Shown here piece after piece: positions 58,413 to 60,190 of a stretch of DNA of 64,000 nucleotides. This DNA is from a phage: the NCBI GenBank assembly GCA_032430995.1, contig GCA_032430995.1_3952.1. The stretch is one strand, 5' to 3'. The position numbers were made by a program, and so were the translations under genes. The first letter of the stretch is position 1. Every line of letters begins with the position of its first letter. Under the pieces are notes generated by a model. That model had not been told where the DNA came from. It made no database searches and worked only from the letters and a program-made list of their open reading frames with translations.

Positions 58413-58800
58413 AATGACCTCAAAGTTATATTAAATTTTGTATTACATTGAGTATAAAAATAAGCTATAACACCTGACTTGTCAACAGATTTTATAGCTT
58501 ATTTGGCAGATTTTTTATAAGGCTACTGCCATCCTTCCATACCTCACCACACAAGACCAGACCATGCCGTACTCCACATCACCGTACATCACTTAAAAAC
58601 CCTTTTCAAAGACTCTTAAGTGATGTAATCGAATTTTTATGTAGCTCCGATTAACTACCCATACCATACAAAGCCATACCCAACCAAACATTACCGCACC
58701 ATACAGAACCGTACCTAACCTGACATAGCCGCACCTTACCTTGTTAAAAGACCCTCTTAAAAGACCTTTTAAAAAGGAGCCTCCGAAGAGGCTGCCTAGT
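58413..58800. repeat. CA-rich noncoding element, copy 1 of duplicated intergenic module
   Basis: CCATACC / ACCTTACC words; 10-bp-stem palindrome CATCACTTAA ... TTAAGTGATG (58587-58625); homologous to 59860-60190. Confidence 0.6.
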
Positions 58801-58804
58801 CAAC

Positions 58805-59245
58805 TTAGAAAGGTTTTCTGCGTTGCTTGTTAATGTTAGCTTTCATAGCAGCTAAGTGGTTTTGCTGTTCAATTAGTCGTGAACGTTCTTGGTGGCTAAG
58901 TGCCATAGTGTTCACATTCTCAATCGCTTGAGTAGCTTGCTTTAAAGCACGACCAATTTTACCAGACATTTTGCGTTTTGCAATAGTTGCTTGATGCTTA
59001 GGTTCAACCACACGATAACCAACACCCATTGAAGCAACCAGATAAATCTTCTCTTCTTTAAGAAGCTTCTCAATAAACTTCTCAAGTCGGTTTAGGCGTG
59101 TAAGTGCATAAGCCTTCATTTCATCTTCGTACTTAACAATGTCACCTTGATAAGTTGGCTTCACAATACCTAAGAAGGTATCCATCTCAGAATGTGATAC
59201 AGTGTCACCGTAACTAAACTTTGCTGCTAATGCTTTTGTATTCAT
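58805..59245 (-). CDS. hypothetical protein
   Basis: 146-aa ORF. Confidence 0.5.
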   Translation of the reverse strand: MNTKALAAKFSYGDTVSHSEMDTFLGIVKPTYQGDIVKYEDEMKAYALTRLNRLEKFIEKLLKEEKIYLVASMGVGYRVVEPKHQATIAKRKMSGKIGRALKQATQAIENVNTMALSHQERSRLIEQQNHLAAMKANINKQRRKPF

Positions 59246-59247
59246 AA

Positions 59248-59850
59248 TTAAACGTTACCTTCTGAAATAACTTCTACAGAAAAACGACCAAAGCGTGGAC
59301 GCCAATCACCTACACCACAAAGGTTACCAGCATTTTCCAGAACCATCAGAAGTTCCTCTCTGGTGATTTGCTCTTCATCGAACATCAAACCGAACTCTAC
59401 AGACCAGTCACGGAAGATTGGACGGTAACTCATAACTCGTGCTGTACCAATCTTAACAGACTTAGCATAGATAAAGTCTGGATTCTTAGCAAGTTCTTGT
59501 GGGTTTGCTGGACAGTTCTTGATAGTCATTGGGAAGACTACATCTGTCAGCATGATGGCTCGGTCAATTACCTTACCAAGTTTGTTGAGTTTTGCACCAG
59601 ACTTGATACAAGCCTCAATCATCTCACCGTTCATAACAAAACCTAGCTGCTCATCGTAGTAACAAGAAGTTACCAGTTGGCTTTCTGCTAAGAGCGCATA
59701 ATCTTCGTCAGTCTTTTTACGTTTACTGGACAGAGACTTGTGATATTTTGTCAGAGGGTTTAATGGGTCTGACAGCGTATCGTTATGGCTCAAGAAAGGA
59801 CGAGTACCAGTGATTTTGATATTTAGCAGTTTCATAGCATTTAGCTCCAC
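59248..59850 (-). CDS. hypothetical protein
   Basis: 200-aa ORF. Confidence 0.5.
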
Positions 59851-59859
59851 ACTTTAGTT

Positions 59860-60190
59860 GATTGTTAAGTTGTTTGTAAAGAACCCTCAACAGAGGACTC
59901 TTTAGAAACTTGGTAGATTTTTAACGTGGCTACTACCATCCACCCATACCGCGACACACCGAACCAGACCTTACACCACCTTACACCACCCCACCTCATT
60001 AAAAGACCCTCTTAAAAGGCCTTTTAAAAAGGTAAGTCTCATTTTAATGTAGCTGAGACTAACTACCCATACCTCACATCACCGCACCATACTACACCTG
60101 ACACCACCTTACACCACCGCACCATACCTGACCGAGCTACACATCACTTAAAAACCCTCTTAGAAAGACTCTTAAGTGATGCTGGTGAGT
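59860..60190. repeat. CA-rich noncoding element, copy 2 of duplicated intergenic module
   Basis: ACCTTACACCACC repeats; same palindrome at 60142-60181. Confidence 0.6.

Follow-up and report, generated by a model that had tools for sequence, protein, structure and literature searches.

Introduction

The Viral Interference Programmable Repeat (VIPR) system, first described in 2026, has been characterized as a CRISPR-like, RNA-guided way of silencing DNA that consists of the RAMP protein Vipr, the accessory gene vap, and guide RNAs termed vrRNAs, in which 9–16 YNNGG repeats are followed by a conserved 3′ tail that folds into a pseudoknot in the SUSP1 clade (bioRxiv 10.64898/2026.04.26.720920; bioRxiv 10.64898/2026.04.26.720927). 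As described in the same two preprints, one Vipr protomer per repeat holds the GGY triplet, and the two variable bases (NN) pair with double-stranded DNA in such a way that one target base is skipped per unit. The vrRNAs of phage SUSP1, about 100 nt long, have been reported to be expressed, to co-purify with Vipr, and to silence, as followed by small-RNA sequencing, pull-down, and GFP and phage assays, and their targets have been assigned to a satellite phage (bioRxiv 10.64898/2026.04.26.720920). Here, we analyse a stretch of 64,000 nucleotides from a phage (GenBank assembly GCA_032430995.1, contig GCA_032430995.1_3952.1; hereafter the window), in which two CA-rich intergenic regions flank a pair of small genes, and we conclude that this region is almost certainly a type II VIPR locus of the SUSP1 clade in a Felix O1-like phage. 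Such a system is not new, having been reported in the 2026 preprints, though it is unannotated in the public phage records examined. The anatomy of the locus, the fold and identity of the proteins, the covariation of the tails, the association of vipr with arrays in distant phages, the skip rule, and the satellite targets have been computed in this work; vrRNA expression, formation of the ribonucleoprotein, and silencing have been taken from the preprints.

The backbones of Class 1 CRISPR-Cas complexes (Cas7, Csm3, Cmr4) share with VIPR the RAMP fold, the arrangement of one protomer per fixed RNA increment with periodic flipping of bases, and a guide RNA that joins a variable part to a conserved, structured handle. 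Their period is, however, 6 nt with five pairing bases, as compared to 5 nt with three protein-held and two pairing bases in VIPR, and their guide is a spacer between long repeats, whereas the VIPR guide is itself a tandem repeat. VIPR further differs in being phage-encoded, in lacking adaptation genes as well as Cas5, Cas6, Cas8, Cas10, and Cas11, and in leaving a gap at every third target base. Conserved triplets that recur about every 5 nt are also found in the trp leader RNA bound by TRAP, in which 11 (G/U)AG triplets spaced by 2–3 nt are laid around an oligomeric ring with one triplet per subunit. Before the fold was known, this analogy had pointed to an oligomer that binds RNA; TRAP differs, however, in its unrelated fold, in spacers that carry no information, whereas the VIPR spacers are the guide, and in acting by attenuation rather than by DNA targeting.

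Organization of the Locus and the Pentamer Arrays

The window belongs to the Felix O1/wV8/SUSP1 group of phages (Ounavirinae; 231 matching records in megablast). All genes around the locus, among them those for thymidylate synthase, DHFR, an HTH regulator, DNA ligase, and DNA polymerase, are encoded on the minus strand, and the arrangement of HTH regulator, array, vap, vipr, array, and ligase, with arrays on either side of the vipr-vap pair, is shared with SUSP1. The two intergenic regions, which are CA-rich on the plus strand, extend over 58413–58804 and 59851–60246, flank the two-gene operon, and hold two modules each (A1, 58505–58593; A2, 58626–58740; B1, 59912–59995; B2, 60035–60148). Read on the minus strand, a module consists of a hairpin of ~20 bp rich in G·U pairs, followed by 10–16 GGY-NN pentamers and then by a conserved 3′ tail of ~35 nt that forms a pseudoknot (Table 1). 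An earlier note on this DNA had listed CA-rich words, a common core (TGTAGCT..GA.TAACTACCCATACC, at 58640–58666 and 60048–60074), and palindromes, all of which are present as described at 58413–60246, and it had correctly regarded both regions as noncoding. The second region runs beyond the proposed end at 60190 to 60246, including the promoter located there; the two CA-rich intergenic regions are real, although the modules number four instead of a duplicated two, and the information resides in the minus strand (GGYNN) and not in the CA-rich plus strand on which attention had been placed.

The CA-rich words recur strictly every 5 nt; on the plus strand they read NN-A-C-C, the complement of GGY-NN on the minus strand. 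Among 61 distinct tracts from the relatives, positions 1 and 2 of the pentamer are near-random, position 3 is A in 92% and G in 8%, position 4 is C in 99%, and position 5 is C in 77%, the values for positions 3 and 4 being partly built in by the tract parser, which has been seeded and extended on AC at these two positions. The register in these tracts is kept without slips over a median of 12 units (mostly 8–20). The pattern lies well outside what chance would produce: in the 64-kb window, in-phase period-5 AC tracts are confined to the two intergenic regions, and none occurs on the other strand. The tail-proximal unit is nearly always GGUAU, the tail-proximal units of the window being located at 58539–58543, 58661–58665, 59946–59950, and 60069–60073. 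Two-tier G-quadruplexes had been considered for these tracts and were dropped; GU is more conserved than GG.

A pattern search of IMG/VR for the conserved core has yielded 20 related loci, to which three from GenBank have been added, and all 23 carry modules at both equivalent sites and in the same orientation, two to three between gp93 and gp94 and one to two between gp95 and the ligase gene. The absence of the elements from related genomes, which the earlier note had named as a possible refutation, is itself refuted by their presence in all these relatives and beside distant vipr homologues. SUSP1 differs from the window phage in having one upstream and three downstream guides in place of two and two, and a third downstream guide is also seen in some relatives (loci L003, L010, L017, L019, and L022). 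Phages with 92–95% identity elsewhere have unrelated NN positions, and the module flanks are almost invariant; the NN sequences of the window phage likewise differ largely from those of SUSP1, and the pentamer number remains within the 9–16 reported for vrRNAs. The modules, ~140 nt in length, correspond to whole guide genes rather than to repeat-spacer units.

Covariation in the 3′ Tails

Eighteen distinct tails have been aligned gap-free and annotated with two interleaved helices of 12 pairs in total, a 3′ pseudoknot as in the SUSP1 system. Stem 1 occurs as GUAG/CUAC, AAGG/CCUU, and GUGG/CCAC, and stem 2 as AGUCUCA/UGAGACU, UAAUCG/CGAUUA, GGCAG/CUGCC, and GGUAG/CUACC. Overall, 90.3% of the cells in these helices are paired, and compensatory changes have been found in nine of the 12 pairs; with the partners slid by 1–3 columns, pairing drops to 26–43%, and none of 500 shuffles reaches the observed score. 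Several of the pairs are G·U and are possible in the minus-strand RNA only. A different kind of tail has been observed in a high-GC metagenomic phage whose Vipr is 41% identical (L024, 7100–7700): its four downstream guide modules carry a tRNA T-arm-like GGTTCGAnnCC followed by CACC, which replaces the enterobacterial pseudoknot, and for which ARAGORN has returned no tRNA and Rfam nothing.

Table 1. Coordinates of genes, predicted guide-RNA elements, and transcription signals of the probable VIPR locus.
Feature	Positions	Strand	Description
vipr	59248..59835	-	195-aa RAMP (Cas7/Csm3-like) protein; 190/195 identical to SUSP1 Vipr
vap (vap1)	58805..59245	-	146-aa accessory protein; 145/146 identical to SUSP1 gene downstream of vipr
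vrRNA B2 repeat tract	60069..60148	-	16 GGY-NN pentamers (plus strand ATACC TCACA ... TCACT)
vrRNA B1 repeat tract	59946..59995	-	10 pentamers
vrRNA A2 repeat tract	58661..58740	-	16 pentamers
vrRNA A1 repeat tract	58539..58593	-	11 pentamers
vrRNA B2 tail, H-type pseudoknot	60035..60068	-	stem 1 GUAG/CUAC; stem 2 AGUCUCA/UGAGACU
vrRNA B1 tail pseudoknot	59912..59945	-	stem 1 GUGG/CCAC; stem 2 GGUAG/CUACC
vrRNA A2 tail pseudoknot	58626..58660	-	stem 1 GUAG/CUAC; stem 2 UAAUCGGA/UUCGAUUA, including one G·U pair
vrRNA A1 tail pseudoknot	58505..58538	-	stem 1 AAGG/CCUU; stem 2 GGCAG/CUGCC
Type 1 hairpin 5′ of vrRNA B2	60140..60183	-	minimum free energy (MFE) -19 kcal/mol, z = -6.1; contains palindrome 60142-60181
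Type 1 hairpin preceding vrRNA A1	58585..58627	-	MFE -18.5 kcal/mol, z = -6.6; contains palindrome 58587-58625
Type 2 inter-guide hairpin, vrRNA B2/B1	59992..60036	-	stem UUAAAAGG.../...CUUUUAA; MFE -20.4 kcal/mol, z = -5.7
Type 2 hairpin preceding vrRNA A2	58737..58779	-	MFE -11.9 kcal/mol, z = -2.3
Related shorter hairpin in the vrRNA B1–vipr interval	59873..59908	-	AGAGUCCUC..GAGGGUUCU; MFE -12.9 kcal/mol, z = -3.5
Sigma-70-type promoter	60212..60239	-	TTGACA-16-TATACT, 11/12 match; reads into vrRNA B2, B1, vipr, vap; conserved in relatives
Intrinsic terminator-like hairpin	58778..58793	-	AGCCUCUUCGGAGGCU then U-run; directly 3′ of vap; conserved in relatives
Sigma-70-type promoter	58457..58485	-	TTGACA-17-TATTTT; serves next downstream gene 58029-58412; outside VIPR unit, marks its lower boundary

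Targets and the One-Base Skip

The window homologue (44695–45492) of the SUSP1 “baseplate hub” protein has been used as the query for satellite DNA, and 17 loci from isolate genomes, with copies 65–84% identical to the query, have provided a target set of 470 kb of satellite-like DNA. Against it, 67 distinct guides of the phage group have been scored by their NN match, with a threshold of at least 80%. When one target base is skipped per unit, as reported for SUSP1, 41 of the 67 guides reach this threshold and 16 match at 90% or more; none does so at 80% with a skip of 0 or 2, and two guides do with a skip of 3. Guides with shuffled units pass the threshold in two cases at skip 1 (four, one, and three cases at skips 0, 2, and 3), and the control DNA at skip 1 has yielded two guides on the phage's own tail-gene loci (457 kb) and three on the masked window together with E. 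coli flanks. Among the guides of the window, A2 (31/32) has its match where two small open reading frames (ORFs) of the satellite meet, and B2 (29/32) as well as B1 (17/20) match within its tape-measure gene; by our own arithmetic, the skipped base is codon position 3 in all three. No self-target has been found, the best match in the window outside the locus amounting to 66–70%, which is the background level.

The match to the targets is unevenly distributed along the guides: in the 41 guides with targets, it is 46% for the tail-proximal unit, 72% for unit 2, 91–99% for units 3–10, and 76% for the 5′-most unit, which is located within the arm of the hairpin. Since the tail-proximal unit, unit 2, and the 5′-most unit match poorly, the effective guide is probably shorter than the repeat tract. 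The poor tail-proximal matching, like the flanking G·U-rich hairpins, distinguishes the present data from the SUSP1 system as it is presented in the preprint text, where neither is mentioned (bioRxiv 10.64898/2026.04.26.720920).

In E. coli O55:H7 TB182A (NZ_CP038295.1), the satellite is an island of ~11 kb between yciI and tonB (~6100–17400 in locus L155), with two serine recombinases, an HNH endonuclease, a tape-measure gene, and a baseplate gene. Of 5426 complete E. coli genomes, 546 contain related sequence. The island is of the same type as the satellite targeted by SUSP1, which likewise has a tape-measure gene and a baseplate-hub homologue. The island also bears a vrRNA-like GGY-NN gene of its own (L155 ~7640–7740, minus strand), preceded by a TATAAT box and ending in a pseudoknot tail of the same architecture (stem GUCG/CGAC), and has no vipr gene despite this guide, as has also been noted for the satellite in the VIPR preprint literature (2026). 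The satellite guide would have to borrow the Vipr of the helper phage. Altogether, the window phage appears to aim its VIPR system at a parasitic satellite element in E. coli chromosomes, which presumably parasitises this very phage.

These matches also bear on the possibility that the arrays are a degenerate CRISPR-like mini-array, or a solitary-repeat RNA anti-CRISPR decoy that sponges host Cas proteins. A Cas7-like protein does adjoin the repeated-RNA arrays, and phages are known to carry mimics of CRISPR repeats. The repeats of 23–50 nt with unique spacers of similar length that make up a CRISPR array are, however, not present, the period being 5 nt; Rfam has given no family for the window locus or for three distant loci, and the sole cas-like gene is a single RAMP. 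Moreover, the variable positions hold targeting information under the non-contiguous rule, which a decoy would not need, and we regard this explanation as very improbable.

The Vipr and Vap Proteins

The Vipr of the window is 97.4% identical to that of phiSUSP1 (KT454805.2, 28477–29061), which exceeds the 90% threshold that the preprint sets for the SUSP1 clade, and the identity of vap amounts to 99%. The residues H17, K33, E71, M72, R138, C173, D177, W178, and R179 are all present and equal to those of SUSP1; according to the cryo-EM preprint, they contact the vrRNA or the target, and they are reported to hold GGY or the skipped base (bioRxiv 10.64898/2026.04.26.720927). At position 175, valine is found in the window as well as in SUSP1, and the text of the preprint gives T175. 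The AlphaFold model of Vipr, with a predicted local distance difference test score (pLDDT) of 95, displays the features of a RAMP, namely an RNA recognition motif core, a glycine-rich loop, and a thumb, and among the top 50 Foldseek matches, with E values of ~1e-4, practically every one is a Csm3, another Csm subunit, a Cmr, or a chain of a type VII RAMP complex (one is Cas6). Pfam has returned no match for vipr or vap, and PHROGs only families of unknown function. An R-loop replication origin with a G-rich transcript and a C-rich template, arrays of primase sites, antisense Rho utilisation (rut) sites, TRAP-like attenuation, and a partition centromere had been among the candidates and were dropped after the fold result.

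Homologues of Vipr (n = 519) extend to Actinobacteria and Xanthomonadaceae, at ~40% identity. In two distant loci, sense-strand period-5 (NNGGY)n tracts flank the homologue together with a downstream gene for ~167 aa, and period-5 GG tracts are situated on the vipr sense strand in 61 of 62 loci with homologues of 39–49% identity, either directly upstream of the two-gene pair or just after it. One locus (L083) stands apart as the sole distant one with arrays on the opposite strand, four tracts at 1170–1620 nt upstream of vipr, in addition to three sense-strand tracts; the former may be a second, divergently oriented array. Relatives of vap are restricted to near-identical homologues, for which reason its structure has been predicted from a single sequence; beyond these, it weakly resembles the gene that follows one distant vipr (27% over 91 aa). 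For type II VIPR, vap has been predicted to be DNA-binding in the VIPR preprints (2026).

The same neighbourhood has invited another interpretation, in which the arrays are iterons bound by proteins at the DNA level, such as a partition centromere or the repeats of a replication origin. Direct short repeats indeed flank two small genes near genes of DNA replication, and earlier annotators have labelled pieces of the vrRNA tails and hairpins accordingly, as “DR_4” in wV8 (NC_012749.1, 59418–59475 and 60811–60868) and, in KhF3 (KT184315.1, 86014–86024), as “possible binding site of StbAB”. Plasmid centromeres (the tetramer boxes of ParG/parH, the stbDR of StbA) also resemble the locus in their very short direct repeats of fixed spacing that flank a small operon. 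The flanked proteins are, however, a RAMP and a small accessory protein and not ParA, ParR, StbA, or Rep, to which no Pfam match points either, and Par or Stb domains are absent from the genes nearby. Centromeres are bound as double-stranded DNA by ribbon-helix-helix or helix-turn-helix proteins, whereas the strand bias in the distant loci, the G·U pairs of tails and hairpins that exist in the minus-strand RNA only, the RAMP partner, and the matches of NN to satellite DNA under the gapped rule, which a protein-binding iteron does not predict, all indicate a function as RNA. As the phage is moreover virulent and in no need of a partition system, iterons have a practically negligible probability. 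The earlier note had proposed protein-binding sites, which would apply at the level of RNA, where Vipr protomers bind GGY according to the preprints, and not at that of DNA.

Flanking Hairpins and Transcription

The palindrome of the earlier note has arms (CATCACTTAA and TTAAGTGATG) that are identical at both sites and loops that differ at few bases; the spacer of 20 nt applies to the copy at 60142–60181, and at 58587–58625 it is 19 nt. A second palindrome type, TTAAAAG..CTTTTAA, adjoins the remaining two modules. In the minus-strand RNA of type 1, G·U pairs lengthen the 10-bp stem to ~20 bp, and the 3′ arm of the vrRNA B2 hairpin overlaps the two degenerate 5′-most repeat units. Of 63 hairpin variants, 62 fold more stably as minus-strand than as plus-strand RNA (means of −15.2 and −8.9 kcal/mol, respectively), and G·U accounts for 23% of the pairs. 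The hairpin core AGAGGGTYTTTWA is found in the window in the four hairpins flanking the vrRNAs and, besides these, in one match with a single mismatch at 27175–27187. The five relatives with a third downstream guide named above also carry an insertion of ~30 nt (TATGAGATACTCTATCGAATATAATT) in the type 1 hairpin loop, the equivalent of which in the window is 58596–58615.

Since the guide is defined in the preprint as repeats plus tail, the palindromic hairpin lies outside the mature guide and flanks it, and does not form the core of the element. We infer that the hairpins serve as processing or 5′-end-defining signals of a precursor transcribed from the promoter at 60239–60212. A more specific version, which we put forward tentatively and hold to be somewhat less probable than its opposite, is that the G·U-rich hairpins of ~20 bp are maturation signals of type II VIPR, at which RNase III or a different activity specific for double strands would process the precursor, in analogy to pre-crRNA processing in CRISPR systems; the role of GGUAU and of the 5′ units embedded in the hairpin would then be structural and the effective guide shorter. 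Neither a hairpin processing step nor G·U-rich flanking hairpins are described in the text of the two VIPR preprints.

A promoter scan together with manual reading has revealed no acceptable sigma-70 promoter within any hairpin or spacer. For A2 and A1, transcription would either continue past the vap terminator or start at a promoter that has escaped recognition.

The strong sigma-70-type promoter in both regions and the terminator in one might suggest plain cis-regulatory intergenic regions, in which the CA-rich tracts are unstructured spacers or antisense Rho-utilisation-like sequences, and the plus-strand RNA is in fact C-rich and G-poor over ~60–80 nt in a rut-like manner. The promoters are, however, located at opposite ends relative to the modules in the two regions, so that the modules are no fixed part of a promoter architecture. 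Furthermore, the 5-nt register, the covarying pseudoknot, the co-occurrence with vipr across phyla, and the gapped satellite matches would all be left unexplained, which leaves this reading with a very small chance of being correct. The paired regulatory regions for downstream genes that the earlier note had considered give way to guide-RNA arrays that flank their own effector operon; its small-RNA candidate has proven apt, the modules being, as judged from their sequence, probable guide-RNA (vrRNA) genes.

Proposed Mechanism and Its Weak Points

In the proposed mechanism, minus-strand transcription from 60239–60212 would produce the guides B2 and B1, the vipr-vap mRNA, and then, beyond vap, A2 and A1. 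A mature vrRNA would comprise 10–16 GGY-NN pentamers and a pseudoknotted 3′ tail of ~35–40 nt. Following the preprints, one Vipr protomer per pentamer would sequester GGY and present NN, which would engage double-stranded DNA by gapped pairing (NN, skip 1, NN), so that transcription of the target would be silenced. The guides would be directed at the integrated E. coli satellite of ~11 kb with its own tape-measure and baseplate genes.

Several points weigh against this interpretation. The function of the window locus has been transferred from SUSP1 through a protein identity of 97–99%, and both source papers on VIPR are preprints. A terminator-like hairpin separates vap from the guides A2 and A1, which have no recognisable sigma-70 promoter of their own. 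Guide A1 has no convincing target, its best match in the satellite loci being 17 of 22, and its central nine units have zero exact matches in IMG/VR; the A1-related guides of SUSP1 and one other phage are likewise without satellite targets. The evidence for the role of the hairpins is folding energy and strand asymmetry. Finally, the single-sequence structure prediction of vap reaches a pLDDT of 68, and its best fold matches are non-significant regulators of the winged-helix type.

Further Observations in the Window and in Public Records

The interval from the DNA ligase gene to the VIPR promoter holds an ORF of 48 aa (60247–60393, minus strand), whose strongly hydrophobic product belongs to a family of unknown function (phrog_22006). 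Elsewhere in the window, 8556–8641 is a C-rich, G-poor plus-strand tract (…CTCTCCCCCTCTTACTCCCCCTCTCCCC…), the sole other stretch with a strong excess of C over G, and is without a 5-nt period. A purine-rich plus-strand tract with an excess of G over C has been found at 15271–15377; it contains the words TAAGAGG, TAGAGAG, and AGAGGGG and shows no VIPR-like periodicity. A record labelled Staphylococcus phage SA1 (GU169904.1) holds a Felix O1-type VIPR locus with 94% identity at 90611–92594 and looks chimeric or contaminated. Across the public records examined, vipr and vap are annotated as “hypothetical protein”, and the repeats are not discussed in the Felix O1 genome paper or in one related genomics paper.

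Significance

VIPR is a newly reported way of RNA-guided DNA recognition that is mainly carried by viruses, and the present analysis provides an independent, purely computational replication of its 1-nt skip rule on different guides and targets. The identification corrects long-standing GenBank labels of Felix O1-type phages, in which the components appear as “hypothetical protein”, “DR_4”, or “StbAB binding site”. Phages of this type are widely used in the typing and biocontrol of Salmonella and E. coli, and they carry programmable weapons against a satellite that is present in ~10% of complete E. coli genomes, which may affect their host range and therapeutic performance.

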